In this document: one piece after another, positions 27,604 to 51,536 of the stretch
How the letters are laid out: each line of letters starts with the position of its first letter
Numbering within the stretch: the stretch's first letter is position 1
From: a virus
Direction: 5' to 3' (one strand)
Virus record (IMG/VR): IMGVR_UViG_3300037245_003639
DNA length: 64,000 nt
Notes under the pieces: generated by a model
Databases searched by the model: none
The model's input: the letters and a program-made list of their open reading frames with translations, nothing else
Told to the model about the DNA's origin: nothing
Program-made: the position numbers and the translations under genes

Positions 27604-27853
27604 CCCAACGGGACTCCCAAGGGAACCCCCCACACAGCAAAGTCACCGGTCTTTTTTAAATGGATGGCTTCATCTGGTGGGCGAAAAGAGTTCATAAAAT
27701 ACATACGCGCAAGCTTAACTAGTCATGGATGGCCTCCGCCGAGACAATATCACCGGTCTATTCCCGGGAAGGGGGGTAGTTGCTATGTCATATGGCTTAA
27801 AAGCATGCTTTGCACTGATCTCAAGTGGCCTGTGTGCCCGATCCCCTGCTGAT

Positions 27854-27930
27854 CTATTTAGTTAAGGATGTGGTAGGTCAGAGTTATTTAGTTAAGGCGA
27901 GGATATGGTAGGTCTATTTAGTTAAACAGC
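27854..27930. repeat. three direct repeats of about 30 bp (TATTTAGTTAAGG...TGGTAGGTC) at the convergent strand-switch point
   Basis: Units start at 27855, 27885 and 27915; followed by the GC hairpin gcgggccgcagcccgc at 27932-27947. Confidence 0.6.
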
Positions 27931-27986
27931 AAGCGGGCCGCAGCCCGCAGTAGGCCACGACCCGCTCTAGGTAATGGTGAGTCAGG

Positions 27987-28235
27987 TCAGGTCAACCAAA
28001 GGAAAAGCAAGGCCATGATGTAGGCCACGACGCGCAAGGTGCCCATGCGTCGAAATTGTCGGTCGGCGTCGTCGCACCTTACATCCGAGTGGTCGCTCGA
28101 CAGGATGTAGACACCCTTCCGCTCCGCTCGCCCGCTCATCCACATGCAGACGCAGCCAGTGAGAATCGGAATCAAACAGACGACCCACATGGGAATCGTC
28201 ATGCTTGCGGCTGGGACGCTCAAAGTAATTGGCAT
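27987..28235 (-). CDS. small membrane protein, 83 aa
   Basis: Start after cassette promoter 28268-28296; the N-terminal TM region resembles that of gene 50241-50891. Confidence 0.45.
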   Translation of the reverse strand: MPITLSVPAASMTIPMWVVCLIPILTGCVCMWMSGRAERKGVYILSSDHSDVRCDDADRQFRRMGTLRVVAYIMALLFLWLT

Positions 28236-28267
28236 CATTGCTTCTCCTTTAGCTTTGACCTACTTAG

Positions 28268-28296
28268 AGTATACCCTATGTTTCCGCCGCTGTCAA
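28268..28296 (-). promoter_or_regulatory. sigma70-type promoter TTGACA-N17-TATACT with conserved leader
   Basis: Read on the minus strand. Confidence 0.55.
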
Positions 28297-29220
28297 GTTC
28301 TTTTCGGATTTCTCTTCGGGTTTCTCTCTCAGCCCCGCTGTTTCGAGAGTCAATGCTACGGCGTTGCATGTACGATTGAGCAGTTGCATACATGCCTGTA
28401 TCGGCTCGCGGCCCTTGGCCCATGCAGTGATGTATTTGTAAGCCCCGCCTAGGTCAGCGTCACGTTCGTAACCGAGAGCATAGAGCAAAACAGCTCCACC
28501 TAATTCGGCTACGATTTCGCCGTCCGCGTATTCTCTGCTACCCTTGCCCCCTTGTGAATTCATCGCACCTAATCTATCATCGGCAGCATGTACTAATTCG
28601 TGGGCGAATGTCGAGACGTTTTCCACGCCGAGAGCGATAGCGTTTCGGCCACCGCTGTACCACCCTTGGGCGGCACCCGTTTGTCCGCTGTACGCTTGGA
28701 GCGACAGGCCCCACTCTTCGGCCACTTCACGCAGGGGTAGCCCGTCTAGGAATTCTTGGGCTTTGGCGTTGTCGGGCCGTGCCTTTTCCCATAGGTCGGG
28801 TTCGGTTATGTCGGTTTGCTCTAGGCCGAATACGGCCATGCCACGGAAACCGTAGATTATAAATCGGTCTTCGTCTGTACCATCATCGCCTTTGACGCTT
28901 CTCTTTCCCTTACAGGGGGCTAGGATAATGAAGGACTTTTCGCCCTGGCGTACTTGTCGTCCTACTTTTTTCCAGCCCGTCCATTCTGATGGGGGAAGGT
29001 CTACCCATTTCTTGCCGACTTTGTTCTTGGTCCTGCCGTAGGTCATGGCGTCGGACATGCCGCGCAAGGCGACGATCAGTTGATTTGACCAGCTATAGTT
29101 GCTGGCGTTTCGCCCGCCACATTTCAGGAATATGGGAGCGATAGCTTTCGGCAGCGTCCCCGCTTTGAACTGGCCGATGATGATGTCAGCGACGGATTCG
29201 GCTTGACCGTAGAGTTTCAT
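28276..29220 (-). CDS. ardC: ArdC-like antirestriction protein / zincin metallopeptidase (ssDNA-binding N-domain plus HExxH C-domain)
   Basis: About 314 aa; FAHELVHA, then GEIVAELGGAVLLYALG, parallel ArdC HELxH ... EELVAELGAAFL; ATGA overlap with the upstream gene. Confidence 0.7.
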   Translation of the reverse strand: MKLYGQAESVADIIIGQFKAGTLPKAIAPIFLKCGGRNASNYSWSNQLIVALRGMSDAMTYGRTKNKVGKKWVDLPPSEWTGWKKVGRQVRQGEKSFIILAPCKGKRSVKGDDGTDEDRFIIYGFRGMAVFGLEQTDITEPDLWEKARPDNAKAQEFLDGLPLREVAEEWGLSLQAYSGQTGAAQGWYSGGRNAIALGVENVSTFAHELVHAADDRLGAMNSQGGKGSREYADGEIVAELGGAVLLYALGYERDADLGGAYKYITAWAKGREPIQACMQLLNRTCNAVALTLETAGLREKPEEKSEKNLTAAET

Positions 29221-29561
29221 GCCAGAATCTCCACGTCCGCATCGGACAGACCTACACCTACCGACTCGGCCCACTCGGCGGTTGTTTTCGGCCAGTCCGT
29301 TGGCAAGCGATTCGAGTCAGGTACCATCGACGCAAAACGCAGAGGCGTTCGGTGTTGCAGTGGGTGAGCCCACCACTTTATCTCGGAATCGTCGGGCTGG
29401 TTGTCGGCAGGTACTACCAGGATAAGCATACCGGCGGGCAACATGCGGCGTTCGCCGGGATTGCCATGAACTGTCTGCTGGCGAGTCACTCCGATAGTAC
29501 GAATAACGTGGTTTTCGGGGCAGCGTCGGACAATCTTCTCACAGTCGCGACATAGAATCAT
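29217..29561 (-). CDS. hypothetical protein, 114 aa, N-terminal CxxC
   Basis: First gene after promoter 29585-29613; translationally coupled to the ardC-like gene. Confidence 0.45.
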   Translation of the reverse strand: MILCRDCEKIVRRCPENHVIRTIGVTRQQTVHGNPGERRMLPAGMLILVVPADNQPDDSEIKWWAHPLQHRTPLRFASMVPDSNRLPTDWPKTTAEWAESVGVGLSDADVEILA

Positions 29562-29584
29562 GTTTCACCTTTACCTTTACTCAT

Positions 29585-29613
29585 AGTATACATCAAGTTT
29601 CGGGGTTTGTCAA
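29585..29613 (-). promoter_or_regulatory. sigma70-type promoter TTGACA-N17-TATACT (perfect -35)
   Basis: Minus strand reads CCCTTGACAAACCCCGAAACTTGATGTATACT. Confidence 0.6.
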
Positions 29614-29678
29614 GGGTAAAAGTGGTTCTTTTTTCGGGCAGACGACGAAGGCGACGAGGTGATGCCAGCGCTTAATCC

Positions 29679-29733
29679 CACTTGAGATCAGTGTGTTCTA
29701 ATTTCCTTGCGAAAATTACACTGATCTCAAGTG
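29679..29733. repeat. inverted pair of the 15-bp element (F 29679-29693, R 29719-29733) around a 25-bp spacer holding a TTCCTTGCGAAAA half-box
   Basis: Perfect 15-bp inverted repeat read directly. Confidence 0.8.
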
Positions 29734-29830
29734 GGAGCTGCGGTTGAGCTGGTGGAGCGGACTCACTCGTGGCATAAAAAAAGGGCCAGCCTTTCGGCTG
29801 ACCCTACCCTTGATGCGAAACTACGCCAGT

Positions 29831-30085
29831 TTAGTAGTCGAGGCCACCTCCTCCTAAGCGGTCTTCGACGGCCTGATCGTGGAGTTGGTCACAAACGCAG
29901 GGGCTCATCAGGCAGTGGTCACAGTCGGCAGAGGGTGACTCGGGCGGCTCGCCCATCTCTTGGTCGAAACGGTCTAGGTCGTCTTCGTGAGCGTCGAGGG
30001 CGTCCTGTCCCGTTAGCATAACGTCTGTATGCCCACAGCAAGGCCAGTCGATGCAGCCGCAAGATCTGATTGGTACTCTGGCCAT
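29831..30085 (-). CDS. small Cys-rich acidic protein, 84 aa
   Basis: Cassette promoter 30117-30144 and SD GGGAGA. Confidence 0.45.
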   Translation of the reverse strand: MARVPIRSCGCIDWPCCGHTDVMLTGQDALDAHEDDLDRFDQEMGEPPESPSADCDHCLMSPCVCDQLHDQAVEDRLGGGGLDY

Positions 30086-30116
30086 TGGTTTGTCTCCCTT
30101 GCTTTGACCTACTTAG

Positions 30117-30144
30117 AGTATACCACATGTTTCTGGAATGTCAA
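30117..30144 (-). promoter_or_regulatory. sigma70-type promoter TTGACA-N16-TG-G-TATACT (extended -10) with conserved leader
   Basis: Read directly. Confidence 0.6.
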
Positions 30145-30290
30145 GTTCCAGTTGAGGGGTCTGTTGTTCATCCACTTGAGATCAGTGTGCTCGGGTGAAC
30201 GGAAAAAAGGCCAGCCTGACGGCTGACCCGCGCTGGGGGTTGGGATTTCGGGCCGTTCGTCTCACGGGTCCACGGCCTCGGGTTGCCCCG

Positions 30291-30560
30291 CTAACTTTTG
30301 ATGATTTCCACGTCATCGGGGCTGCGGAGGGTCACGAAATACGAGCGGACGATACGGTTGTTGGCGACTACCTGTCGGCCGTCGGCTCCCGACTTCCAGA
30401 TGTTGACTCGGAAGCAGCGTGCGGTAATCGGCCTTACATCCATCGACTCATCGGGGGCCAATTTCGGCTCGCCCTGTCGCTCTAACGCATCCGTGATGAT
30501 TGACTCGTTGGTCTTGGTTGGCTGTGTTTCGACTGGTTTCGTTGCGGTGGCGGTTTCCAT
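30291..30560 (-). CDS. hypothetical protein, 89 aa
   Basis: Cassette promoter 30590-30617. Confidence 0.45.
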   Translation of the reverse strand: METATATKPVETQPTKTNESIITDALERQGEPKLAPDESMDVRPITARCFRVNIWKSGADGRQVVANNRIVRSYFVTLRSPDDVEIIKS

Positions 30561-30589
30561 TGTTTGCTCCCTTGCTTTGACCTACTTAG

Positions 30590-30617
30590 AGTATACCACA
30601 GATTCCGCCATTGTCAA
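30590..30617 (-). promoter_or_regulatory. sigma70-type promoter TTGACA-N16-TATACT with conserved leader
   Basis: Read directly. Confidence 0.55.
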
Positions 30618-30882
30618 GTTCTTTGTTCAGGAATATCTAGCCACGCATTTACCACATTGCGTTGAACGACCTCTTGTTCCTCTGTCATTTTTCCGGGTCT
30701 CGGGTCCGCATCAGCCAGTATACGCTTTGCTTGGACTACTGCCAAGTTGTAGCGACGTACTGGATTTCGCTGGTGTCGCCGTCGCTCGACTCGCCGCTTT
30801 GCGGCAGCAGCGATTCGTTGAGCAGTTACCCACGGACATTCTGGTTGAGGCATCGCACCAGTCCTACTTGAGATCAGTGTTT

Positions 30883-31071
30883 CTAACGCGGACCGAGAGT
30901 CTCAGTATGGCGTGCAGTTATTTCGGCGGCTTTGTCTGCCGCTTGTTTGCGTACAGTTGCCGTCAAATCTTCCATGAAAACTTCCACACTCGATTCCAGG
31001 TCTTCTACGTCTGTAATGGTCATTAGGATCTGATTTACAATCCACTTGACCACTTGTTCGTAAGTTATCAT
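30883..31071 (-). CDS. hypothetical protein, 62 aa
   Basis: SD AGTAGGA; co-transcribed downstream of the tRNA-like gene. Confidence 0.4.
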   Translation of the reverse strand: MITYEQVVKWIVNQILMTITDVEDLESSVEVFMEDLTATVRKQAADKAAEITARHTETLGPR

Positions 31072-31129
31072 ATCCTACTCCAATGCTTCGCGTAGCACCG
31101 CTGTCTCACTTGAGATCAGTTCCTTAGTA

Positions 31130-31209
31130 TGGAGCCAGTAGGACTCGAACCTACAATCACCTGTATCTCGCGAGAAATACAGACGGCTTCCCAATTTGCC
31201 TATGGCCCC
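31130..31209 (-). tRNA. tRNA-like gene (80 nt) with canonical acceptor, D and T arms but a non-canonical, extended anticodon region
   Basis: 5' GGGGCCA pairs with 3' TGGCTCC (one G-U); D-loop AATTGGGAA; T-arm GTAGG-TTCGAGT-CCTAC; the central 22 nt are CTGTATT-TCTCGCGA-GATACAG (7-bp stem, 8-nt loop); no CCA encoded; own promoter at about 31270-31300. Confidence 0.45.
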
Positions 31210-31318
31210 AGGGGGCGGCGTGTCTCAGTCCGTCTGTTTGGAATGCCCATTCGGCCAGACAGAGCCGAGCGTCACGCCGCGCGATTCACAGCGTAGTATA
31301 CTCGCCCTTTCCACCTTG

Positions 31319-31477
31319 TCAACGGATAGGCGGATAGAATGGCTGGTGGTCATCGTCGAGCAACATGCCGTCGAACATCCACGGGACGAAGTGGTTGTTA
31401 TCCAGGACATGTTTTGAGGCTGTCGTGGCAGTAATTGCCAGCAGCACCAACAGGTAAACGGCAATTCGTTGTTTCAT
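31319..31477 (-). CDS. 52-aa secreted peptide (signal MKQRIAVYLLVLLAITATTA)
   Basis: Cassette promoter 31508-31535. Confidence 0.35.
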   Translation of the reverse strand: MKQRIAVYLLVLLAITATTASKHVLDNNHFVPWMFDGMLLDDDHQPFYPPIR

Positions 31478-31507
31478 GGTTTTATTCCCTTTGCTTTGAC
31501 CGTATGA

Positions 31508-31535
31508 AGTATACCACATGTGCGGGGTTTGTCAA
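31508..31535 (-). promoter_or_regulatory. sigma70-type promoter TTGACA-N16-TG-G-TATACT
   Basis: Read directly. Confidence 0.55.
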
Positions 31536-31700
31536 GTTCTTTTGTGGAATTTCCACCAAATCGCCGCAAGTTCACGAGTTCCTGTATCGCCGTTACGTCG
31601 GGGAAACCGATAGCGATCAAGGAATTGCCACAACGTCAATTTCCGGGCATCTTGTCGTATGGCTTTCACGGTTTGACTCCCTTGCTTTGACCTTATCAGA

Positions 31701-31729
31701 AGTATACCACACTTGCGGGAGATTGTCAA
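31701..31729 (-). promoter_or_regulatory. sigma70-type promoter TTGACA-N17-TATACT with conserved leader (drives a roughly 46-aa GTG-start ORF)
   Basis: Read directly. Confidence 0.5.
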
Positions 31730-31900
31730 GGGCATTTCCGAGTTCATTTCGATTTTACCGGGAAGGCCAGTGCCGCTGCCCGAGCACGCGCTGCCGGATC
31801 AGTCACTTGAGATCAGTGCGTTTGAATTTCTTTCCGCGAAAAAACGGCCCCGACCGGATGGTCGAGACCGTCTTGATGTTTTCCGTTAGGGGGTTGTAGG

Positions 31901-32173
31901 TTATCCGCCGGGTTTCGGTTTGGTGGGGATGGGGTCAAAAATCCCGCTAACTATGCCGTCCTCACAGCAGCAGTCATCGGCGTCGGGGCCATTGCCTGTT
32001 TGGTCGGCTGTGAACGTGAGATAAATGCCCATCTCACTCACTTGAATGGCTTTGACTACGCGTCTTACTTCGTCCTCCGTCACCGTCACCGTTTCCTCTG
32101 GTCGGGCGTTGGCGACTACCACCGTTGTTTTTCTCAGTCCTGCCCCTATTGGTTGTTTGTCACTGTCACTCAT
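31901..32173 (-). CDS. hypothetical protein, 90 aa
   Basis: SD AGGAG directly after a partial 15-bp element; the upstream gene's stop overlaps the element. Confidence 0.45.
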   Translation of the reverse strand: MSDSDKQPIGAGLRKTTVVVANARPEETVTVTEDEVRRVVKAIQVSEMGIYLTFTADQTGNGPDADDCCCEDGIVSGIFDPIPTKPKPGG

Positions 32174-32195
32174 GCTTGCTCCTACTTGAGATCAG

Positions 32196-32516
32196 TTAAA
32201 CGTATTCGTGGATGCCCGAGCAGACGCCACTGGCATGGCAAACTTCGCCAGCGACATCCCAGCCAACGTGGCCGCATTTGTTACAGAGGGTTTGTCGCCC
32301 TGTCGGTTCTTCTAGCAGCATTCGCAACGTAGCCATGGCGGCGATTCGGCAATCCAGCATACTCGCCAGACCTTGGACTTCGCCAAGGTCGTTTAGATGG
32401 CGCTCGTCATCCTTGACTGCTTGTTTAATTCCATCGAGCGTTATCTGTAAAGCTCGGATACGGGTGAGCGTATCGCCCTTTAGGTCGTCAAGTTTCTTTT
32501 GAGCTACTGCTCTCAT
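32196..32516 (-). CDS. hypothetical protein, 106 aa
   Basis: Cassette promoter 32545-32572. Confidence 0.45.
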   Translation of the reverse strand: MRAVAQKKLDDLKGDTLTRIRALQITLDGIKQAVKDDERHLNDLGEVQGLASMLDCRIAAMATLRMLLEEPTGRQTLCNKCGHVGWDVAGEVCHASGVCSGIHEYV

Positions 32517-32544
32517 GGACTCTCCCTTTGCCTTAACCTTTCTA

Positions 32545-32572
32545 AGTATACCACATCTCAGCAGATTGTCAA
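32545..32572 (-). promoter_or_regulatory. sigma70-type promoter TTGACA-N16-TATACT
   Basis: Read directly. Confidence 0.55.
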
Positions 32573-32683
32573 GCATAAAGTTGTTCTATTTATTAATTTC
32601 GTGTAGGTAATTCGGTGTTGAGTTATTTGGTGTGGGGTATGCGTATGAATTACTCACTTGAGATCAGTGCGGTCTACTCGATA

Positions 32684-32860
32684 CTACTTGGCCCTAATGA
32701 TTTTCGCAAGCTCCGCAGCGATTTGTCGGTTGCTGTTGCCGTCTTGAAACATTTGAAGCCCCTTGTCTCTCACGTCGTCGTCATGCCAGTGGGCATTGGC
32801 TTTTGCTTTTCCTACCAAGTCCCACAACATCATCAGGATAAGACCTTGTTGACTCGCCAT
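32684..32860 (-). CDS. hypothetical protein, 58 aa
   Basis: Promoter 32878-32905. Confidence 0.4.
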   Translation of the reverse strand: MASQQGLILMMLWDLVGKAKANAHWHDDDVRDKGLQMFQDGNSNRQIAAELAKIIRAK

Positions 32861-32877
32861 GTTTGCTCCCTTTGCTA

Positions 32878-32905
32878 AGTATATCACATCTCAGCAGATT
32901 GTCAA
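32878..32905 (-). promoter_or_regulatory. sigma70-type promoter TTGACA-N16-TATACT
   Basis: Read directly. Confidence 0.5.
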
Positions 32906-32967
32906 GAGAAAATTAGAACATCTACACGAAGGAGACAAAGATGGAGAAACTCCAAGTTGGCACTGGC

Positions 32968-33022
32968 CACTTGAGATCAGTGCATCTTTAGAAGATTCGA
33001 TGACCCACACTGATCTCAAGCG
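32968..33022. repeat. inverted pair of the 15-bp element (F 32968-32982; R 33008-33022 imperfect, 13/15)
   Basis: Read directly. Confidence 0.7.
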
Positions 33023-33046
33023 AGTTCCATTTAAGATCTTTTGCTC

Positions 33047-33198
33047 TTTATTAACTTTATGCTGTCTTGTAACTCGTTTATTTGCAAGGGTTTATGGAAG
33101 CCCGATTTAACTATGTCAGTGATGTGATTTTAGCTTTTATACTGTTTTATAACTCGTTTGTTTACAAGGGTTTATGAGAGGTCTGATTTAGACTATTT
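33047..33198. repeat. two direct repeats of about 72 bp (TTATRCTGTYTTRTAACTCGTTTRTTTRCAAGGGTTTATG...)
   Basis: Units 33047-33116 and 33127-33198, about 80% identical. Confidence 0.6.
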
Positions 33199-33240
33199 CG
33201 ATGGTGTGGATTAATAAAGATCGCTCTGCTTAAATAAAAA

Positions 33241-33270
33241 CCGCCCAAGCGTGAACTTGAGCGGTTAGGT
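33241..33270 (-). terminator. rho-independent terminator (ccgctcaag-N6-cttgggcgg plus U-tract) after gene 33289-33639
   Basis: Stem and T-run read on the minus strand. Confidence 0.6.
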
Positions 33271-33288
33271 CAAAGTGGTAAGGGGTTG

Positions 33289-33639
33289 CTACCTTTCGTC
33301 GGGAAACATCAGAGTGATGCCACCGCTTCCGTTGGCCCCAATCCATACGTCTTTGCCCGTGACGTTTCCTCCGAGGCCTTCCGTCCACAGATGATCAGCG
33401 GGGTTGCCCTTTACAATCAGCAGAGCGTCCTGGATGAGTGGGATGGCTCGCTGTTCGAACGTCCTGTCGTCCTGGACGGCTTCGATGGCTTCGTGGACTC
33501 TGACGGTCAAGAAGACTCGGACTCCAAACTTGGCTGGAAATGGCTCACCAATCATGCCGTCTTCGAGCGCGTCGTCGTCGGTATAGACGCTGATAGGGTC
33601 GCCAAACATCTCGGTCATCGGGTCTTTTGCTTTGCTCAT
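33289..33639 (-). CDS. hypothetical protein, 116 aa; leaderless (ATG 6 nt after the -10 TACTAT)
   Basis: Promoter 33646-33674 (TTGACA-N17-TACTAT). Confidence 0.45.
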   Translation of the reverse strand: MSKAKDPMTEMFGDPISVYTDDDALEDGMIGEPFPAKFGVRVFLTVRVHEAIEAVQDDRTFEQRAIPLIQDALLIVKGNPADHLWTEGLGGNVTGKDVWIGANGSGGITLMFPDER

Positions 33640-33689
33640 GTATGAATAGTAACCCATGTTTGCCACTTTGTCAAGCGAAAAATTGGTTC

Positions 33690-33703
33690 TTTTCCGCGGA
33701 AAA
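33690..33703. promoter_or_regulatory. perfect 14-bp palindrome TTTTCCGCGGAAAA about 16 bp upstream of the -35 (centre near -62)
   Basis: Read directly. Confidence 0.5.
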
Positions 33704-33900
33704 TTGAAGAGTTTGCGAATTTTGTAATTTTGTAACTTTGTAACTGTTTCGCAATTTCGCAATTTTGCAACTTTGTAACTGTTGCAACTTTGCAAGTATT
33801 TGCAACTTTGCAACTTTGCAACTTTGCAACTTTGCAACTTTGCAACTTTGCAACTTTGCAACTTTGCAACTTTGCAACTTTGTATTTGCAACTTTGCGAA
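33700..33900. repeat. microsatellite: 8-bp unit TTGCAACT (about 13 pure copies at 33796-33896, degenerate copies upstream)
   Basis: Read directly; the ORF-track products with KVAKLQSCK repeats are artefacts of it. Confidence 0.85.
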
Positions 33901-33935
33901 GATTCAACTATTTCAAGTTTGGGTGGAACCAGGTT

Positions 33936-34012
33936 CACTTGAGATCAGTGTAAAAAGTAATTTCGTGTAGGTAATTCCGTGTTGCAATTTCGTGTAGCAC
34001 TGATCTCAAGTG
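33936..34012. repeat. inverted pair of the 15-bp element (F 33936-33950, R 33998-34012) enclosing three AATTYCGTGTWG iterons
   Basis: Read directly. Confidence 0.8.
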
Positions 34013-34061
34013 GGCCTGGTCAGCGCTCCATCAGGGTGGCCTGCTTGCCCTTTTATGTGGG

Positions 34062-34097
34062 CGCAAAAAAAGAGCGACCCATTTCTGGATCGCTCTA
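34062..34097 (-). terminator. rho-independent terminator (agagcga-N12-tcgctct plus U7) after gene 34141-34341
   Basis: Read on the minus strand. Confidence 0.65.
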
Positions 34098-34140
34098 CCG
34101 CGCAAGCAAGCGGATTTCTCCGCTTGCCCTCTACCGCCCG

Positions 34141-34341
34141 CTAGTCGTCGAGCGTGACGGGTACGAGTTTCACCCGAATCAGTTTCGTTTCGTCCCTTTC
34201 AGGATGCGGGTGATGGTAGTGGACGATCACGCCTTCGTCGTCAGAGCCGACGGGTTCTGGCGCTTCGGCGCGAGCGCTCTCCTCCAGCCCTACTTTGATG
34301 CACGCGATCAAACTCTTTTTCTCTGCCGCCGTCATTGCCAT
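34141..34341 (-). CDS. hypothetical protein, 66 aa
   Basis: ORF. Confidence 0.4.
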   Translation of the reverse strand: MAMTAAEKKSLIACIKVGLEESARAEAPEPVGSDDEGVIVHYHHPHPERDETKLIRVKLVPVTLDD

Positions 34342-43678: not shown

Positions 43679-45172
43679 CTAGTTCTCGGTATCCTCCAGA
43701 CCCGACGAAATAGCGTCCGCATCGGCTTCCACTTCGGCATCAGCGTCGGAAGTATCCTCCGCCGTATCCGTCAGGTCCGCAGCGGGAGCGTCCTCGACAA
43801 CGGGAGCGTCCGCAACAGGCAGGGTCTCGACAACGGGCTCGGGCTCGGTCTCGACCCTCTTAGTCGGCTGACGCTTCGGACGCTTCGCCTTGGGCTTGGG
43901 CTTGGGCTTCGCCTTGGGCTTCGCCTTGGGCTTCGCCTTGGGCTTCGCCTTGGGCTCGGGAGCCTCTTCCGTCTCTTCCACTTCGGCCCGCAACGCTTGA
44001 CGGGACTCGTGGGTAAGGGCGTCACCGCAGCGGAGACCGATGATGCAGGTAATCCGCTTGTCGCCACGGTCATCCCCGAAGGTCATCGCCATCGGCTGGT
44101 CGATAACCGCATTACGGAGACCAAAGCAGGCCAGGACGGTCGGGTTGTTGCGGGTCTGGACGCCCATATTGTAGAAAATGGCATCCTCAGCCGCTTCCTC
44201 ATCATCCCACGACTCCAGGAAGTAATCCCACGCCGACTTGCCGTCCTCATCGTGGGTTGCCTTGGCGTTCATGAGCTTCTTGACCGCCGCAACCAACGCA
44301 GCCTTGCTGACGCTGTTACCGACGATGGGTTCGGCCAGGGCCTTGAAAGTGATACCCTTCGTATTCTCACTCTCAACCGCCTTGGCGATTTGAGCGTAGG
44401 TCATTGCCTTGCCGCTACGCATGAGACGGCCAGCGGTCGCCAACTGGTTCGGCAGCATGACCACAGGCGTACCCTGGGTACGGTCGCCTGTCCACGGGAC
44501 GGTCGTAACGCTGTTGTTGACCTGAAAGACGATGTTGCGGATTTCGTCCTCACGGCCACGAAACGCCAGACGTTTCGCGCAGATCACGTTGGCGCCGTAG
44601 GTATTGCTACCCGTGGAACCGTGAAAAACGTCGATAGCGTGACTTTTGTCGTCGCCAATGACGTACTCGGATTTGCCCACTATCACGAGATGGCCTTCAC
44701 CCGTGACATTGCGACGAACATCCTTGAGAGCCTGCGCCCGTCCGAAAGTAATGCTGATGCCGTAGCCCGGTTTCCACGCCGGGAGATGGGAAGACCAGTT
44801 TTCGGGCTGTTCCTGATTGCGGCTGGCCTGTCCATTGCCAGCAAAAGTCATTCCCAGACTCTTGGCCGCAGCCAGCAAAACGGGCTGATGGACCGCCGGG
44901 ACAGCCGGGACGTGCTTCGCATCGCGACCCGCATACAGGGCCTTGTTCATGCTGTCGTCGCTGTAGGTCTCGGTTGTCTCATCCCACTCGCCCCACTTCG
45001 CCTCAATCTCCGCCACCGTGAACCGACCACCATTGACCTCAGCCACGGTCAACTTCTCGCCAGCGACCAGCTTGTGGGCCAGGGTTACGAGATGATCAGG
45101 CTTCACAGGCAGGAGGAGATTGCAGACAGGCGGGGCCGTCTTCGGTTTGCTCTTACTCTTGGCCATTTGCAA
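43679..45172 (-). CDS. hypothetical protein, 497 aa, with a C-terminal lysine-rich tandem repeat (PKAK)n, histone H1-like tail
   Basis: 12-bp DNA repeat gccttgggcttc at 43905-43950; promoter 45242-45270 (TTGACA-N17-TAAACT). Confidence 0.5.
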   Translation of the reverse strand: MQMAKSKSKPKTAPPVCNLLLPVKPDHLVTLAHKLVAGEKLTVAEVNGGRFTVAEIEAKWGEWDETTETYSDDSMNKALYAGRDAKHVPAVPAVHQPVLLAAAKSLGMTFAGNGQASRNQEQPENWSSHLPAWKPGYGISITFGRAQALKDVRRNVTGEGHLVIVGKSEYVIGDDKSHAIDVFHGSTGSNTYGANVICAKRLAFRGREDEIRNIVFQVNNSVTTVPWTGDRTQGTPVVMLPNQLATAGRLMRSGKAMTYAQIAKAVESENTKGITFKALAEPIVGNSVSKAALVAAVKKLMNAKATHDEDGKSAWDYFLESWDDEEAAEDAIFYNMGVQTRNNPTVLACFGLRNAVIDQPMAMTFGDDRGDKRITCIIGLRCGDALTHESRQALRAEVEETEEAPEPKAKPKAKPKAKPKAKPKPKPKAKRPKRQPTKRVETEPEPVVETLPVADAPVVEDAPAADLTDTAEDTSDADAEVEADADAISSGLEDTEN

Positions 45173-45286
45173 TTTCTCCAGTTACCAGTGATTCGTGAAG
45201 GTTGCCAGCAACATGCTTTCAACCGTTTATCCGATAGAAGTAGTTTACTCGATGGGTTCAGGATTGTCAAGCACTCTTTTGGAATT

Positions 45287-45517
45287 TTATTCGTTCCGTT
45301 TGGCAATCACCATAACCTCATCCAAAGTGAGATGTAGGTTTTTGGCGACGAGCGCGATAATCTCATCCTGCGACAACTCAGGGTCGGCGGCAATGCCTCT
45401 GTAGTAAAGGTCATGGTCGGCAGGAAAAGTCTCCGCCGGTGAAAACCAGATGTGATACGATGTGCCCAGTACCACTATCACGACGAATGAAATCAAAGTC
45501 CAAAGCGTCTTCCTGAG
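45287..45517 (-). CDS. membrane-anchored protein, about 77 aa
   Basis: Promoter 45546-45574 is a near-duplicate of the one at 45242-45270; SD GGTGGAG. Confidence 0.4.
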   Translation of the reverse strand, partial: LRKTLWTLISFVVIVVLGTSYHIWFSPAETFPADHDLYYRGIAADPELSQDEIIALVAKNLHLTLDEVMVIAKRNE

Positions 45518-46055
45518 CATGATCAAACTCCACCAAATCCAGCCCCCGATTCTCATAGGTTACTCAGTGGGTTCAGGATTGTCAAGCACCACTTTGGAAT
45601 TTTCTGGAATTTCTCGTGCAGGCTCACAGGGATGCCGATAGGTCTGGCCATCACAATGAACCCACTCCCCATCCCCCGCGGTAATAGCCCCACCACAATT
45701 CTGGCAGACGTAATTGCCATTACAGTATTTCAACTCTAAAAGATCGCCCAAATTACATTTGGTCCAATCCATTATGATTCTCCCTGGTTATCGCTCATGT
45801 GCAGCATCCTGTCCCAAAGCCATTCTGCATCGAAGAATTTTAGGAGCCAAGTCGCGTAGATCACTCTCAGCTACAAGAACGATGTCTTGACTCACTCCAG
45901 ATGGGGATTGACGGAGACGACGACGATGAATAGCCCGATTTTGAGCATTGAAATTCCAGCGAACCATTAGCTCAGAAAGACGCTGTTGGATTAGCTGTCT
46001 GCAATTCATGTGGTAATCTCCATGTGCAGCATCCTATCGAACCCCCGAGAGATTG

Positions 46056-46997
46056 TCAAGCAAAAACTGGGTGATGCACGGCCAAATGTTTTTGACCATT
46101 CGGAGTTATCATCCGTCCCCGTGATGTCCTGTCTATCATCCCCAGACTCAACAAAATCGGTTCCACGGTCTCTTCAATCACTTCAACCTGTTGACCCAGC
46201 CGACCAGCAATTCCACCCACACCACGGGGACCAGGAGTATCAGCCAATATCCTAAGATACTCAACATGCAACTCTTCAAGACCAATCGGGTCTATTCCTT
46301 CCAACCTAATGGCCAACTGACAATGAACCAACGTCAATTCAGAAGCATGGGAAGCCAAAAAGACATTGCGAACTTTCTCGGCCAACCTTTTAGCTTGCCG
46401 AGGAATTCCTAAACAACGTTTGGCTATGTACTCCAGGTGTGGATAATTCGTGTCAACGCCTTGAGATTCAAAATACTTGTGAAGGATGGTTATCAGGTCG
46501 TTGACTGAATACCTGCCCACTCGCCAGATGTTACCGAACCGTTTTACAAACGATGCCTGATCCAATTCGTCTCGTCGAGTAGTGGCAGCCATCAAAGTAT
46601 ACGGAGCCAAACCAATGGTTTTAGTTGGCAACAATATCCGAGGACTCTCTCGATCCATAGGATAATAGAAGACTTCTTGTTGTGGCTCGGAAAGTCTTTG
46701 AACTTCATCGATGAAGAGCAGCAAAGGTTTGCCTGCTTGAATAGCAGCTTCGTTAGCAGAAAGTAAGCGTTGAATGATTTGGTCCCGCGTCTTCAGTGCA
46801 GCAGCTTCAGTTACAATCGAGTAGTAACCGAGTTCTTCTGCAATGGCTAACGCAAGCGCAGTCTTACCAGTGCCACCAACCCCTTCGAGCAGAGTATGTG
46901 GGAAGACTTCACCTGTCTGACGACAGGCCTCGATATCGATATGGGCGCGAGCTTTCTCACGCCGCAAACCGATCAGTTTATCTAAACCTTTTGTCAT
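46056..46997 (-). CDS. ruvB: RuvB-like AAA+ ATPase (Holliday-junction branch-migration motor family)
   Basis: LLEGVGGTGKTALA, LLFIDEVQRLSEPQQEVFYYPMD, TLMAATTRRDEL, GIPRQAKRLAEKVRN, RTSRGRMIT parallel E. coli RuvB blocks. Confidence 0.8.
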   Translation of the reverse strand: MTKGLDKLIGLRREKARAHIDIEACRQTGEVFPHTLLEGVGGTGKTALALAIAEELGYYSIVTEAAALKTRDQIIQRLLSANEAAIQAGKPLLLFIDEVQRLSEPQQEVFYYPMDRESPRILLPTKTIGLAPYTLMAATTRRDELDQASFVKRFGNIWRVGRYSVNDLITILHKYFESQGVDTNYPHLEYIAKRCLGIPRQAKRLAEKVRNVFLASHASELTLVHCQLAIRLEGIDPIGLEELHVEYLRILADTPGPRGVGGIAGRLGQQVEVIEETVEPILLSLGMIDRTSRGRMITPNGQKHLAVHHPVFA

Positions 46998-47001
46998 ATT
47001 G

Positions 47002-47427
47002 TTAGGGCAAGTCCCCGACGCTCTCCAGAATGCTAGTTGGGTCGCCCTCTACTTGCCAGTACAGCGTGTCAGTGGTCAGGTCTACCCCAATTAGAGAATA
47101 GACGATATCACGCAGAACCACTGTACCCGTAAGTCGCATACTCAAATGTTCATCGAACGCTTCAATGTCCCACATCATCACTTCACCTAACGTGATAGCA
47201 ATAACGCCCTCCACATGACCGACGAACCCAGGCTCACTGTAATCAGCCGCAGGGTCAGCATTGTCTTTCGCCTGTTTACGAATCGTCTCGATGGACAGCG
47301 GTTCCTTTAGACAAACGGCCAGAAGATTCAACGTATGTTGAGCGCACCCCAGGACCGTGTCGTCGATTTCACCATCTCTACCCATAGCGTGGGAATACTG
47401 TTCTGCAAAGGTTTTCATGGCTCCCAT
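47002..47427 (-). CDS. hypothetical protein, 141 aa
   Basis: ORF. Confidence 0.45.
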   Translation of the reverse strand: MGAMKTFAEQYSHAMGRDGEIDDTVLGCAQHTLNLLAVCLKEPLSIETIRKQAKDNADPAADYSEPGFVGHVEGVIAITLGEVMMWDIEAFDEHLSMRLTGTVVLRDIVYSLIGVDLTTDTLYWQVEGDPTSILESVGDLP

Positions 47428-47876
47428 TTTATTCCTCCAGGTCGAAATAGCGGGTCATGTTATTTTCCTCACCATGTTTGGTACCTTGGGGTTTTTAAAG
47501 ACTTTGATGCACTGTTTTAGAACGGCAGGGTCAATTTGAAACTCTCTCCTCGACCCGAAGTCCATCTGAAAGTCAACGCCATCCAGTTTCTTCTCAAAGA
47601 TGAACTCGTCATACCCAGTCGGGAGAGTCGGCTCAGGCAGGGGGTCGAAACCCATCGCCATTCGCAACGCATTGTCTGACCGCAGTTTTAGTCGAGCAGC
47701 TTCTTGCTCAACAGTCAACCCCGAAAATCCACTCAAACCCGTAGTGACTGGACGAGACGGGGCAGACCCACTTTTCGCGGGAACAATTTGAAGCCGCTCA
47801 GCCAGCAGTGTGTCTCGACGTATATTCACCCGTTGGCAAAGACCATTCCAGGCCATGAGCTTCGAGTTGTCCATCA

Positions 47877-48371
47877 CTACTCTGGCCCCCATCCACAACC
47901 TTGACAGAAGACGCTTGTTGCCCCTTGAATCAAACTGCAAGAGCAATTAGGGCAGCCATCCCCCTGTTGCGGCGGATGCTTACCACCGCATACCGACAGC
48001 GGCTTGCCACATTCACAGTCGCAAGAACACGGAGATTCATAGCAGGTTGAGCATAACGGATCCCAACCCAGAACCTTATGAACTTTGTTCATCATCTCAA
48101 TCGGGAGCGTCCCAACGTCCGTACAGCCCTCGATCTCAAAGTCGTTGGCCAAGTCGATCAGCAGCTTGGATGTTTCGTCCACGGTCACATTGAGCACCTC
48201 AATGCCGACCTGATCATCAAGGTCATGGACAAACCCCTCACTTTCCCCATACTTCATAGCATGAAGAATCGCTGCCTGCACCGCTCGTTGAAGTTGCTTA
48301 TCGGGAATCGAGCCCGAACCATCAGGATCGATTAGCGACGTGCGTAATGTGACGTTGATTTGAATGTCCAT
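47877..48371 (-). CDS. hypothetical protein with a C-terminal Cys-rich cluster
   Basis: ORF. Confidence 0.4.
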   Translation of the reverse strand: MDIQINVTLRTSLIDPDGSGSIPDKQLQRAVQAAILHAMKYGESEGFVHDLDDQVGIEVLNVTVDETSKLLIDLANDFEIEGCTDVGTLPIEMMNKVHKVLGWDPLCSTCYESPCSCDCECGKPLSVCGGKHPPQQGDGCPNCSCSLIQGATSVFCQGCGWGPE

Positions 48372-48428
48372 GTTGTTTCTCCAGTTGGATGAAGTATACC
48401 CTATCCAGCAGAGTTTGTCAAGGGCAAT

Positions 48429-48839
48429 CTAATGTTCTTCGATTGCTACATCGGCCACGCAAACTACCGTCGTTTCTGCATGGTCATGCTCAAACCCACT
48501 GTTCTCTGCAAATTTGAGAGCCCTATTCACCGCCTGTTGAGCAGCCGACTCAGACGCTTCCTTAGTCAACGCTCCATCAGAATCCACCTGCAATGTCACT
48601 CTGATTACAACTTCACAGACAGTTCCATCCTTCTTCGGCGGAATGGAGCATCGCCCATCTTTTACCACCACGCGAATTTGGAGTTCTCGTAATCGATCAT
48701 TGAACTCGCGCGAGGTACTGTCCGCATGGAAGTTCGCCTCAGTCATAAATTGAATGAACCTAACGAATGCTTTTTCCCTGATTCCATATTCCAACATCGC
48801 CTGAACGAAAGCCAGCAATCTTTTTTGTTCTTCTGTCAT
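48429..48839 (-). CDS. hypothetical protein, 136 aa
   Basis: ATGA overlap with the upstream small ORF. Confidence 0.45.
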   Translation of the reverse strand: MTEEQKRLLAFVQAMLEYGIREKAFVRFIQFMTEANFHADSTSREFNDRLRELQIRVVVKDGRCSIPPKKDGTVCEVVIRVTLQVDSDGALTKEASESAAQQAVNRALKFAENSGFEHDHAETTVVCVADVAIEEH

Positions 48840-49330
48840 AGTCTAGGTCTCCGCATCCCTTTTGGACGCTTCTTGGGTTGTGGCTTGGAAGGTCTTGAAG
48901 CAGGAGGCCGACCAGACCCACTTGAGATCAGTGTCTTGGGACGCCCCCGTTTGAGCTTCGTGGTGGATTTCCTGGCCTTTGCCGACATGCAACCCTGGAG
49001 TCTAAGATGAGCCCCAGGCCAACAGGACTGACAGTCTTTGCATTCAAACCAATCAGGACAGGTTGGCATCTCTTTGATGCTGCGTTGGCAATCAGGACAG
49101 GTAGGCATCCTACTTTCCTAGACGGAAGCAGAACCAACGATGAGCGGCCTTGTCCGGTGAACGTTGCTGAGCAGCAAAATGCGTTGTCTCTTGACCTCGG
49201 AAATTCGGCCCTTCCCCGTCTGCTACTGCAAGCAATTCGCGAGCCAAGCGGCGAGCTTCGTCACGATTGACGTGGATTCGCTCCATAACCGAACCATGCT
49301 CACTTGAGATTTTTTCAGTAGTAACCTTCA

Positions 49331-49504
49331 TCAGAAGCCCTCCAAAAGTAACGCTCGAATCTTGGCAACTCGACGTTCTTTACGATGCGTAAGGGTCTTC
49401 GTGAAACGCCCCGGCGTCTCTCCATGACGATGAAGCCGAGATGACCAATACTCTCGGTCTCTCGGAGCCTCACGAGACTTGCTACCTGTATGTCGTCGTT
49501 GCAT
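49331..49504 (-). CDS. 57-aa basic protein; leaderless (ATG 6 nt after the -10)
   Basis: Promoter 49511-49539 (TTGACA-N17-TATAGT). Confidence 0.4.
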   Translation of the reverse strand: MQRRHTGSKSREAPRDREYWSSRLHRHGETPGRFTKTLTHRKERRVAKIRALLLEGF

Positions 49505-49737
49505 GATTGAACTATAACGTGACCTTGACAGATTGTCAAGCGTACTTGGTGAGAAACTTGGTGATCCGTGGGTAATACTCACAGGCCGTCACGATCAACA
49601 TGCTGGCCACAGCGTATCGCCAATTCTCTACGTTAGGAGCAACCAGCGATAGGCCATAGGAGATAGCCCCACAGGCAACTATCCAACAGATAAGGTCAAG
49701 AAGGCGAATCACAACTTTGTTCATGTCGTATCCTCAA

Positions 49738-50244
49738 TTAACCTTGCGAAACAGATTGCCGTATCAACTGGTACATATGAACCTTCATGTCCGCCACAGA
49801 CATAAATTCTGTGACAGGTTCGTTCCCCTCTCCAGAATCTAATTGAAGTTGCCAACGCTCAGGACCATTTTGGACCAACGAGTACCGTTGGTTAGTTTGA
49901 GCCGTCAACCGGCCAAGCAAATCAAAAGGATGTTCGTGAGACAACATTCCATTCACGGCCAGCCAGTCAAACAACTCCCCTTCACTCGTGATGAAGTCCC
50001 CGCCGGGGTGATTGGTCTCTCTGCTGTCATGGCAGAGCGTGAATCCACAGCCCTTGCAACGAAACGAATAAATCCCGTCACAGTCGTCCGTCGAATGGTC
50101 CGTCTCACCATAGTTACAGGCAAACGCATCTCCACCCTGAGATTCGAGCGATTCAACCACCGTGGACTGTACCACGTCAGTTAAGACTTCCTCAAGAACC
50201 GTCTCCCCGCATTGCGGGCATTTGAAGTTGAGATCGACTCTCAT
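49738..50244 (-). CDS. hypothetical Cys-rich protein, 168 aa
   Basis: ORF. Confidence 0.45.
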   Translation of the reverse strand: MRVDLNFKCPQCGETVLEEVLTDVVQSTVVESLESQGGDAFACNYGETDHSTDDCDGIYSFRCKGCGFTLCHDSRETNHPGGDFITSEGELFDWLAVNGMLSHEHPFDLLGRLTAQTNQRYSLVQNGPERWQLQLDSGEGNEPVTEFMSVADMKVHMYQLIRQSVSQG

Positions 50245-50891
50245 CCGTTATCCCCAATGAAATTGGACGTAATCGCATTCGCCGTATCATCAGGATAAAA
50301 GTGCATCTGAGCCAACGAAACCTCACCCGGTAATTCATGCCGCAAATGAGCCCACAGCTTCCTACTCAATGACATACGCCGCCCTTCGCTGTTGTCAAAG
50401 ATTGTATAGTAGTCAGATGCAGGAGCGACCGACGCTGCCAATTCCTCATCACAACGCTCATGCGCCCAGTAAACAAACTCCACTTTGCCCCCTGGGAGGT
50501 CATACTCCGTCGTGAACTCATGCTTCATCTCGAAAAACGGCTTCCCCTGTGAGACAGCAGCGGGCTTCGAGACCGCCACCTGGATAGCCATCCACAGGAA
50601 CAACATCATAGCCACATACGCCATAACCCGCCAAAAACCCATGCGACAGAAGTTGATGTTCGGATGGTCCTGAGTATTGAAGTCACCACTCGATACCTTC
50701 GCAATACCCACGGCCTCATTCACCCCAGACCGCCACATGGCAAAGATACCCGCAAGCATTGGAAGGATGACAAATACCCACGTAGGAATCACGATGCTGA
50801 ATGACGGAAAACTCAAAATCAAAGCGTTCATTTCGGCTCCTCTTGCCAGTAGACAATCCAGTTTGACGCCCCTAGTTGAGAACAGGGGCAA
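50241..50891 (-). CDS. membrane protein, 216 aa
   Basis: ORF; N-terminal TM region resembles gene 27987-28235. Confidence 0.45.
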   Translation of the reverse strand: MPLFSTRGVKLDCLLARGAEMNALILSFPSFSIVIPTWVFVILPMLAGIFAMWRSGVNEAVGIAKVSSGDFNTQDHPNINFCRMGFWRVMAYVAMMLFLWMAIQVAVSKPAAVSQGKPFFEMKHEFTTEYDLPGGKVEFVYWAHERCDEELAASVAPASDYYTIFDNSEGRRMSLSRKLWAHLRHELPGEVSLAQMHFYPDDTANAITSNFIGDNG

Positions 50892-51168
50892 CAGTCAAGG
50901 TGTCCCAGTACCATCCCGACTCATCAGGCCCGTGAGCATCGTCATCGTAGGCAAGGTCATCAATGACCAAAGCCGTGCCATCACCCAGGGGTATAACGAC
51001 GTGTCGGTCATTGCCCTCACGATCTTTCAATCTTTGTATGGTTGTTTCGTCGAGACTGTCCAAGAACTTCTCAACCAGTGTATCCCGTTGAGACGAGTGG
51101 GTCTCTACGTCGATCTGTGCTTCGTTGAGTTGAACTTCTGTGTCGCTTAGTTGAGCTATGATATTCAC
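50872..51168 (-). CDS. hypothetical acidic protein, 98 aa (GTG start)
   Basis: SD GGGAG; promoter TTGACA-N17-TAGGAT at about 51200-51240. Confidence 0.4.
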   Translation of the reverse strand: MNIIAQLSDTEVQLNEAQIDVETHSSQRDTLVEKFLDSLDETTIQRLKDREGNDRHVVIPLGDGTALVIDDLAYDDDAHGPDESGWYWDTLTVAPVLN

Positions 51169-51336
51169 GTCAAACTCCCAAAACCAAGGTTTCCATGTCC
51201 GAATCGAATCCTACCACTCAACGTCCAGATTGTCAAGGCTATTTACGTGGTTCAGAATTTCCCAGTTAAAAGGAATATATTAACACGCACGCATGAAGCC
51301 GCTGTTGGAAATGGAGGCTCCGCCGCGCTGAAGAGC

Positions 51337-51381
51337 CACTTGAGATCAGTGCGCTGAAATGGAAGACACTGATCTCAAGTG
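51337..51381. repeat. inverted pair of the 15-bp element with a 15-bp spacer (F 51337-51351, R 51367-51381)
   Basis: Read directly. Confidence 0.8.
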
Positions 51382-51480
51382 ATGTGTGCTAAGCCGGCGC
51401 TAGATCATCCGCGATCGCGAATCCAGAAGATTTTGATTAACGAATTGTCCGAAATGGGAAATAAAGGAGCTGTCCTTCCC

Positions 51481-51536
51481 CACTTGAGATCAGTGTCCTG
51501 TTTATCAGACCTTGAAACTTACACTGATCTCAAGTG
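51481..51536. repeat. inverted pair of the 15-bp element with a 26-bp spacer (F 51481-51495, R 51522-51536)
   Basis: Read directly. Confidence 0.8.

Follow-up and report, generated by a model that had tools for sequence, protein, structure and literature searches.

A short oriented repeat at the ends of transcription units in a promoter-rich block of viral DNA: a possible site for a boundary protein

The stretch of IMG/VR virus record IMGVR_UViG_3300037245_003639 analysed here (the window, 64,000 nucleotides in full) carries 27 copies of a 15-bp element, all of them between positions 27813 and 51536, that are placed by precise rules at the ends of transcription units. The element, hereafter S, reads CACTGATCTCAAGTG in the orientation of the minus-strand genes of this 24-kb block. 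It is probably a DNA-binding regulatory site of one sort or another, and we tentatively propose, as a possibility rather than an expectation, that it is the site of an element-encoded DNA-binding protein that acts as an oriented, stoperator-like boundary or roadblock between transcription units. A DNA-binding protein is suggested by the all-or-none conservation of S, its bipartite motif, its occurrence in both orientations and its phased head-to-head pairs, whereas the boundary function is suggested by the tight coupling of S to stop codons and terminators on either strand together with a loose coupling to the next promoter.

The copies stand out sharply from the background. A search of both strands of the window with CACTTGAGATCAGTG, allowing up to two mismatches, yields 27 matches, 19 on the plus and eight on the minus strand, compared with 0.25 on average and never more than 1 in dinucleotide shuffles. 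The number, the strand bias and the improbability by chance claimed in a preliminary description of the window are thus all borne out, as is the confinement to the block, with no match in 1-27812 or 51537-64000, the other 40 kb of the window. The coordinates listed there are likewise correct apart from 32184 and 36455, which are one base off and should read 32183 and 36454 (Table 1). Within the window the conservation of S is all-or-none: 23 copies have no mismatch, three have one, one has two and none has three, and matches with four mismatches (13) are about as many as the 14.4 expected from shuffles. A purine lies directly 5′ of S in 26 of the 27 copies and directly 3′ in all 27, and the flanks are otherwise unrelated, nothing being common to the copies beyond 16 nt. 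S also avoids coding sequence: at most five of the 27 copies fall within called open reading frames (ORFs) although 73% of the block is coding (binomial p = 4e-9), and three of these ORFs are low-scoring plus-strand ones and probably spurious, the gene calls for small ORFs being approximate. The sequence is asymmetric; the imperfect dyad CACT...AGTG pointed out previously does exist in the window sequence, but is not maintained among the variants and displays no covariation. The sequence of S was found in none of the papers searched.

The placement of S follows a few simple rules, seen over six genomes, namely the window and the relatives L009, L010, L083, L085 and L087, with 110 copies of S. 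First, in at least 16 cases across these genomes an unpaired sense copy starts between -6 and +14 nt relative to the upstream stop codon, at 39217 even with the TGA inside the element, as had been noticed before. Next, of 17 gaps between a terminator hairpin and the following S, 12 measure 20-25 nt (p ~8e-8 relative to a uniform spread). Such terminators include those of units on the opposite strand. The unpaired antisense copies at 36824 and 27813 fit the same end-of-unit rule, and in all relatives the latter, the boundary copy, is located where the converging operon of the left flank ends. The initial formulation that S begins 0-25 nt after a stop codon holds for the examples quoted with it, but other copies are instead found 20-25 nt past a hairpin or, in the window, in divergent pairs about 100-150 nt past a stop. 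The copy at 31107 does directly follow the end of the tRNA-like gene, as stated.

Towards the next gene the coupling is considerably looser. The next sigma-70 -35 box is mostly located 50-85 nt past S, with a range of 19-119 nt, and the distance shows no helical periodicity (p 0.17-0.35), which makes S unlike a classical activator site that works on a downstream promoter from one face of the helix. About a third of the sense copies have no promoter after them and are followed by a start codon 9-38 nt on, and in seven or eight of these the Shine-Dalgarno sequence (SD) overlaps the 3′ end of S. The three copies reported to be immediately followed by an SD and a start (36454, 32183 and 30865; 9-12 nt) indeed are, and 39217 can be added to them. 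In the window no S lies on the -35 or -10 box of any predicted promoter, the nearest being 28 nt upstream.

Relative to the genes of the block, 72 of the 110 copies are sense and 38 antisense. All 25 pairs less than 90 bp apart are divergent, the 5′ ends of the two copies pointing at one another, with no convergent case (sign test 3e-8). The centre-to-centre distances are 30-34 bp in 11 pairs, 40-44 bp in another 11, 56 bp in one and 62 bp in two, or roughly three, four and six helical turns, with a period of about 10-10.5 bp and a phase near zero (Rayleigh p ~1e-5; both p-values are optimistic, as some pairs are orthologous between genomes and not independent). Such phasing points to a protein-protein contact on one face of the helix and suggests that S acts in double-stranded DNA. 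The spacers of the pairs often carry one to three copies of another repeat, M3 (AATTYCGTGTTG), whose core ACAC[G/C/T]GAAT resembles the 5′ half of S and which is kept in L009, L010, L083 and L085; the M3 arrays look like operators for another regulator.

The relatives were found via two proteins encoded in the block, one ArdC-like (28276-29220) and one of 245 aa (34973-35710), both of which led to metagenomic contigs. Some of these are identical copies of the locus (L006-L008, L081 and L082), and the others represent five related genomes (L009, L010, L083/L084, L085/L086 and L087) with 45-76% identity in the 245-aa protein. No close match was found among GenBank phages, PLSDB plasmids or IMG/VR, the last searched by protein, and an exact 382-aa protein was not on record; a metagenome scan with the boundary pattern likewise gave no match, the collection being probably without the source samples. 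A search of related phages had been recommended in the preliminary description, and all five metagenomic relatives do contain the element, at a similar density and within the same promoter, terminator and S modules. The exact 15-mer CACTGATCTCAAGTG recurs in L083, and the other genomes have lineage-specific forms: CACTGATGTCAAGTG in L009 and L087, CACTGATGTCAGGTN in L010 and CACTGATGTCAAT[CG][CT]G in L085. The resulting consensus R-CACTGAT[C/G]TCA-NNNN is bipartite. Its first 11 bases are invariant in the six genomes except for C or G at position 8, and the last four nucleotides are constant within a genome but vary by lineage (AGTG, GGTN or AT[CG][CT]).

The limits of the S-bearing region appear to be conserved as well. 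In the relatives that extend past the boundary, S ends at the same point in L009, and in L086 over about 2 kb. The composite at the left edge, CACCGGTC...ATATGTC...AAAAGCATGCTTT followed by S, about 30 nt and ATTTAGTT repeats, is kept in all seven loci. In a distant locus, L013 (2229-12474), a different 13-mer, CCGAAATAAGTGC, occupies the slot of S in eight copies, all sense; there the layout runs from a terminator over about 20 nt to the 13-mer and then over 45-84 nt to a promoter, and a conserved palindrome, TTTCCGCGGAAA, lies between the 13-mer and the promoter.

Among the four roles considered in the preliminary description, the site of a regulator or nucleoid-organising protein fits these observations best, given the phased pairs, both orientations, the location past terminators and the bipartite motif. 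In the proposed mechanism, the element-encoded protein would bind a single S as a monomer-like unit on double-stranded DNA, with separate parts of the protein reading the 11 invariant bp at the 5′ end and the four lineage-specific bp at the 3′ end. Bound S would then present an oriented barrier that delimits the short host-RNA-polymerase units of the early block: a polymerase reading through from the preceding unit would be stalled and released at S, which would insulate the next unit, and a gene with S between itself and its promoter would be shut off. In a divergent pair the two proteins could touch across three, four or six helical turns and form a two-way barrier. The binding itself, the polarity of the block and the timing of an early shut-off or silencing are what we infer here from the layout of the sites.

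The active site of a roadblocked bacterial polymerase stands about 14 nt before the obstacle, and with this footprint a gap of 20-25 nt would place it 6-11 nt past the hairpin, in the normal release zone. A more specific form of the boundary model, a composite terminator in which a polar roadblock is fixed 20-25 bp past weak hairpins or right past stop codons, seems rather unlikely. Host polymerase would then be kept in the zone of release, and strong promoters that stand in tandem by the dozen would be insulated. In this form the 3′ half of S would co-evolve with its protein between lineages, and the phased divergent pairs would be two-way insulators. We know of no described counterpart, in phages or bacteria, of a fixed hairpin-plus-roadblock composite terminator, nor of such a geometry in a phage early region.

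Several points weigh against S as a protein-dependent boundary. The conserved proteins of the block have no Pfam, PHROG-function or PDB match and no binder was found among them, and PHROGs and Pfam applied to about 100 window proteins revealed no regulator in the conserved core. Besides the 245-aa protein, the conserved proteins of the block include ones of 162 aa (34393-34881), 157 aa (33289-33762), 189 aa (36946-37515) and 112 aa (39226-39564). The profile of the conserved 245-aa protein has no PDB match, and its AlphaFold2 model is poor (predicted local distance difference test score, pLDDT, 56) and unfit for a fold search; one of 67 small proteins gives a weak winged-helix match (AbiEi_4 / Mrr_N), with the protein not located. 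In the stoperator system the operator copies overlap promoters, whereas S is never on a -35 or -10 box. A roadblock right after a stop codon would leave the polymerase stalled while still within the final codons of the gene upstream, and a simple roadblock alone does not explain why pairs are divergent only. The numerical fit to the U-tract and release zone depends on the footprint of about 14 nt, and the orthology of some pairs reduces the weight of the pair statistics. Finally, there is no S in the 130 nt upstream of six sigma-70 promoters at 43.5-49.5 kb, and the copy at 48919 is the only one in that part.

The strongest competing explanation, still rather improbable in our view, is that S is a compact promoter for a phage-encoded RNA polymerase, either T7-like, non-canonical or virion-borne, with transcription starting at or after the 3′ end of S and with divergent pairs as back-to-back promoters. 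This role had been put forward in the preliminary description and remains a live rival. Near-identical copies without a degenerate tail are just what T7-type promoters display, and the intergenic, mostly co-oriented placement, the purine after every window copy, the exclusively divergent pairs and a motif that shifts by lineage as if with a cognate protein would all suit a promoter, as would the position of S past terminators and ahead of genes, at times 9-12 nt before a start codon with its SD. T7-type promoters, however, precede genes in their own orientation and serve middle or late genes, whereas 38 of the 110 copies of S are directed at the 3′ ends of converging genes and have nothing to transcribe, and no copy occurs in the flanking 40 kb, where the action of a phage polymerase would be expected. 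S is instead confined to a region already rich in host-type promoters, and each gene downstream of S also lies, within its operon, downstream of a sigma-70 promoter. Neither the phasing of the pairs nor the fixed 20-25 nt gap from terminators is expected of promoters, S has no fixed -10-like partner, and no RNA polymerase gene was seen in the 64-kb window, although the genome may be of about 403 kb.

Less probable again is that S is a distal operator which controls initiation at nearby sigma-70 promoters, by activation, looping repression or KorB-like spreading, and not elongation. In most modules of the six genomes S does lie 50-85 nt upstream of a -35 box, the 13-mer of L013 is found at a similar distance, and S is associated with M3 arrays and with TTTCCGCGGAAA-like palindromes upstream of promoters; the phased pairs also suggest cooperative binding. 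The distance, though, spans 19-119 nt without helical periodicity, roughly one in three sense copies is promoterless downstream, lying 9-38 nt before a start or in a 5′ untranslated region (UTR), and many promoters of the block are without S; it is the upstream stop codon or terminator, and not the promoter, to which S is tightly coupled.

That S acts in RNA, either as a processing or punctuation site, as proposed in the preliminary description, or as the site of a translational or RNA-stability factor between early cistrons, is quite improbable. Several copies do occupy just the interval from a stop codon to the following SD and start, one lies just past the 3′ end of a tRNA, and two thirds of the copies have the orientation of the mRNA. 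Many copies are nevertheless downstream of intrinsic terminators, a third are on the strand without a detectable promoter, and the pairs are phased to the DNA helix. A CACU/AGUG stem would be expected to covary, yet 23 distinct variants of S contain no compensatory change and 33% unpaired cells; no Rfam family matches S (only the tRNA was found), and the folding energies of the flanks are near background.

Least probable of all is a recombination or mobility signal (a cassette boundary, a homing target or a miniature mobile element) or a host repeat of the repetitive extragenic palindromic (REP) kind. The block is a mosaic, with genes between the conserved anchors differing among relatives, and the inverted pairs superficially resemble REPs or bacterial interspersed mosaic elements, but the homology between the window and L009 begins at a sigma-70 promoter cassette (AAAAGAACTTGACA) and is unbroken at S, and the flanks are unrelated; nothing supports the homing-endonuclease target suggested earlier. 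The block showed no gene for an integrase, a transposase or an HNH protein. The exact 17-mer occurs as 67 isolated single matches in 185,579 species genomes of GTDB, as a multi-copy repeat in none of them, and as five single matches in IMG/VR, which speaks against a host REP-like or uptake-signal repeat for the genomes covered.

Some further candidates were rejected outright. A sigma-70 promoter, or a MotA-box-like substitute for the -35 element, does not agree with the lack of a -10 at a fixed distance downstream, and real sigma-70 promoters are separate and abundant; the copy at 38579, which had been taken to replace a missing -35, has downstream of it a TAGACT with just 6 nt left to the ATG, and other copies are not followed by a -10 at a fixed place either. 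The reverse complement of S provides a TTGACA in L009, L087 and L085, but by eye a usable -10 is present in the spacer of only two of 11 short pairs, both in L085, and such use appears opportunistic. The Dam site GATC is not the functional core, being GATG in most relatives, and the consensus sites of IHF, CRP, LexA and DnaA, compared by eye, do not fit S.

Of the systems already described, two come closest to S. The repressors of Cluster A mycobacteriophages (L5 gp71 and the TipsytheTRex repressor) are two-domain monomers with a conserved and a variable DNA-binding domain that read an asymmetric site, the stoperator, and halt elongation (PMC9283540), and roadblock proteins more generally help to delimit transcription units (reviewed in PMC10310618). 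Stoperators and S are alike in being short and asymmetric (13 bp against 15 bp), in occurring in more than 20 copies, nearly identical to one another, within short gaps between genes, and in combining a conserved with a lineage-variable part, as expected of a two-domain monomeric binder. They differ in that stoperators are distributed genome-wide in temperate siphophages, whereas S occupies only 24 kb of the 64-kb window, and in that the orientation of stoperators follows host RNA polymerase transcription, which is true of only two thirds of S (72 sense, 38 antisense), the antisense third being mostly in phased divergent pairs. Some stoperators overlap early lytic promoters as operators, which S never does, and the 20-25 nt spacing from terminator hairpins is peculiar to S. 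Neither a homologue of the stoperator repressor nor a helix-turn-helix protein was identified in the conserved set of block proteins, and nothing indicates lysogeny. The second comparison is with the 21-22-bp direct repeats of the T1-like phages TLS, T1 and Stevie, which, like S, are asymmetric, mainly intergenic and oriented with transcription, number 16-21 copies and occur in a genome of promoter-gene-terminator modules; their function is unknown, with stoperator or enhancer roles proposed (PMC11447400, PMC4319613). They have a different and more degenerate sequence (aaATAGCACnnnTTGnTAAAA) and lie about 76 nt upstream of start codons genome-wide, and divergent pairs are not described for them. 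S is thus not a member of the stoperator family as defined, yet works most like stoperators and the T1-like repeats.

Other parallels are more distant. In the hyperplastic early region of T4-type phages, every small ORF is accompanied by a repeated early promoter with a stem-loop (PeSL, promoter-early stem-loop). The block similarly repeats a promoter and 5′ UTR cassette, AAAAGAACTTGACA...TATACT...GGTCAAAGCAAGGGAG, that marks where homology between relatives starts, but S is separate from this cassette, has no conserved spacer to the promoter and also occurs promoterless. The KorB OB sites of IncP plasmids and the matS sites of MatP are sets of at least a dozen identical sites for one protein, at variable distances from promoters or within one domain; they are palindromic and orientation-free, whereas S is an asymmetric, oriented element linked to unit ends. 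Polar, protein-mediated termination is known from Tus-Ter acting against RNA polymerase and from TTF-I and Reb1 at ribosomal DNA units, where a DNA-bound protein halts the polymerase according to orientation. These sites, like S, come after one unit and upstream of the next promoter, but belong to other organisms and other polymerases. To our knowledge, a terminator-coupled and paired layout confined to one domain has not been described before.

If S is a protein-dependent boundary, then one protein and one DNA word would organise, and probably switch off, a host-takeover region, and the two would make a compact orthogonal site-protein pair for the insulation of synthetic transcription units. 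The conserved and lineage-specific halves of S offer a natural series for studying the evolution of DNA-binding specificity. If S is instead a promoter, its antisense copies imply programmed antisense transcription of early genes, which would be unusual too. Under either reading, S flags the early block, along with its boundary, among this family's metagenomic contigs.

Table 1 Features of the S-bearing block in the window. For S, the strand is that on which CACTGATCTCAAGTG reads.
Feature	Position	Strand	Remarks
S	27813..27827	+	outermost left boundary copy, points into block; palindrome AAAAGCATGCTTT directly 5′
S	29679..29693	-	sense member of 40-bp divergent pair; sigma-70 -35 65 nt downstream
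S	29719..29733	+	antisense member of pair with 29679; 48 nt from terminator hairpin 29782-29805
S	30173..30187	-	21 nt past terminator hairpin 30208-30229; -35 at 30144, 28 nt on
S, variant G15A	30865..30879	-	3 nt past stop of 30883-31071; SD and ATG 11 nt downstream
S, variant C1A	31107..31121	-	8 nt past tRNA 3′ end; 35 nt before ATG at 31071
S	31804..31818	-	~24 nt past hairpin and T-run (~31843-31872); 74 nt before -35 at 31729
S, variant C1A, G15A	32183..32197	-	overlaps stop of 32196-32516; SD and ATG 9 nt downstream
S	32655..32669	-	14 nt past stop of 32684-32860; 82 nt before -35 at 32572; M3 array between
S	32968..32982	-	sense member of 40-bp divergent pair; 62 nt before -35 at 32905
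S, variant T14C	33008..33022	+	antisense member of pair with 32968
S	33936..33950	-	sense member of 62-bp divergent pair enclosing three M3 repeats
S	33998..34012	+	antisense member of pair with 33936; 58 nt from terminator hairpin 34071-34096
S	36098..36112	-	1 nt past stop of 36114-36443
S	36454..36468	-	in 5′ UTR, 63 nt downstream of sigma-70 promoter 36532-36560; SD and GTG 10 nt downstream
S	36824..36838	+	antisense to block genes; ~30 nt past terminator 36767-36794 of its own plus-strand unit
S	38579..38593	-	11 nt past stop of 38605-38751; 38 nt before ATG at 38540
S	38880..38894	-	in last 24 codons of called ORF 38821-39204; 81 nt before -35 at 38798
S	39217..39231	-	contains TGA stop of 39226-39564; GTG start 12 nt downstream
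S	42091..42105	-	7 nt past stop of 42113-42445; 51 nt before -35 at 42039
S	42888..42902	-	sense member of 43-bp divergent pair, one M3 in spacer; 73 nt before -35 at 42814
S	42931..42945	+	antisense member of pair with 42888
S	48919..48933	-	lone copy in S-poor half; between genes 49110-49331 and 48429-48839, inside doubtful 49-aa ORF
S	51337..51351	-	sense member of 30-bp divergent pair; 100 nt before -35 at 51236
S	51367..51381	+	antisense member of pair with 51337
S	51481..51495	-	sense member of 41-bp divergent pair, upstream (right) edge of block
S	51522..51536	+	antisense member of pair with 51481; outermost right copy
M3 arrays (AATTYCGTGTTG)	32595..52151	+	13-bp period, 1-3 copies; inside S pairs or directly upstream of -35 boxes
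M3 array positions	32595-32620, 33959-33997, 36798-36823, 39977-40014, 42835-42860, 42909-42920, 43595-43606, 52094-52151		
Near-consensus sigma-70-type promoters, ~25	28268..51236	-	lowest to highest coordinate; ahead of small genes
Terminator-like hairpins	29782-29805, 30208-30229, 33239-33266, 34071-34096, 36901-36930	-	ahead of S copies or pairs
Terminator-like hairpin	27933-27948		ahead of S at 27813

The block that contains S has a G+C content of 0.50-0.55, compared with 0.46-0.48 in the flanks, and nearly all of its genes are on the minus strand and mostly small, according both to our own gene calls and to those of the Joint Genome Institute (JGI) on the identical contig. Its promoters are the sigma-70 array and not S. 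They have the form CTTGACAATCT, 16-17 nt, TATACT, in which the -35 region is extended and conserved, and many are followed by a repeated 5′ UTR, GGTCAAAGCAAGGGAG; the block also contains many hairpin-plus-T-run terminators, and S is confined to the region of the window that is densest in such host-type promoter and terminator modules. From this layout the block looks like a host-polymerase early region of promoter-gene-terminator modules, and its earlier designation as an early-gene block is reasonable given the promoters ahead of small genes, with the word early suggested by the arrangement rather than by timing. Similar near-consensus promoters occur outside the block at 4344, 11575, 55670, 60722 and 61366.

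One predicted transcription unit inside the block is on the plus strand. Its consensus promoter (36606-36634) and strong terminator (36767-36794) would delimit an RNA of about 150 nt; next comes the S at 36824, and the arrangement is kept in L009, L083 and L085. The unit (36606-36800) contains no convincing ORF, has no Rfam match and, by eye, no stretch complementary to S; its RNA may be a small RNA. The tRNA gene at 31129-31210 on the minus strand (82 nt) has an odd anticodon loop and is not assigned by ARAGORN, but is scored as a tRNA by Rfam with 50 bits, and has its own sigma-70 promoter at 31295-31322. At 33764-33897, about 14 tandem 8-bp units (GCAAAGTT on the minus strand) form an iteron-like array that adjoins the S pair 33936/33998 and its M3 repeats and overlaps the 5′ part of ORF 33289-33891.

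No structural genes were seen in the 64-kb window by PHROGs and Pfam scans, and the source is a putative phage. Unusual gene content is seen at 17557-27603, 46056-46997 and 28276-29220. It includes an AAA+/M41 (FtsH-like) protease and, in the left flank, an acyl-carrier protein, a 4HBT thioesterase and a NADAR protein; a ClpS-like adaptor is somewhere among the small ORFs. The block encodes a RuvB-like ATPase besides the ArdC-like anti-restriction metallopeptidase, and the window also shows an SNF2 helicase and PHROG matches of unknown function.

Both edges of the block are rich in repeats. The left edge (27760-27930) is non-coding and runs from CACCGGTC...ATATGTC...AAAAGCATGCTTT through S to three TCTATTTAGTTAAGG repeats. 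At the right edge, around 51860-52400, about 900 bp lack a convincing gene, and four to five tandem units of about 40 bp (ATGGAATCTTTGTTCTTTGGGGTTTGATTGTTGTGTTCTA) are followed there by M3 repeats and five copies of AATTCGGTGCAAG; this repeat-rich stretch is a candidate origin, partition site or control region. Farther right, TCCGCGGAA recurs five times in 51.6-64 kb. The Logan contig L007 crosses the left junction, which shows that the block is contiguous with its flank. The block (27747-52063) has also been assembled as a separate 24,317-bp contig, JGI Ga0484852_0000309, in another metagenome, and the ends of that contig coincide with the two repeat-rich edges.

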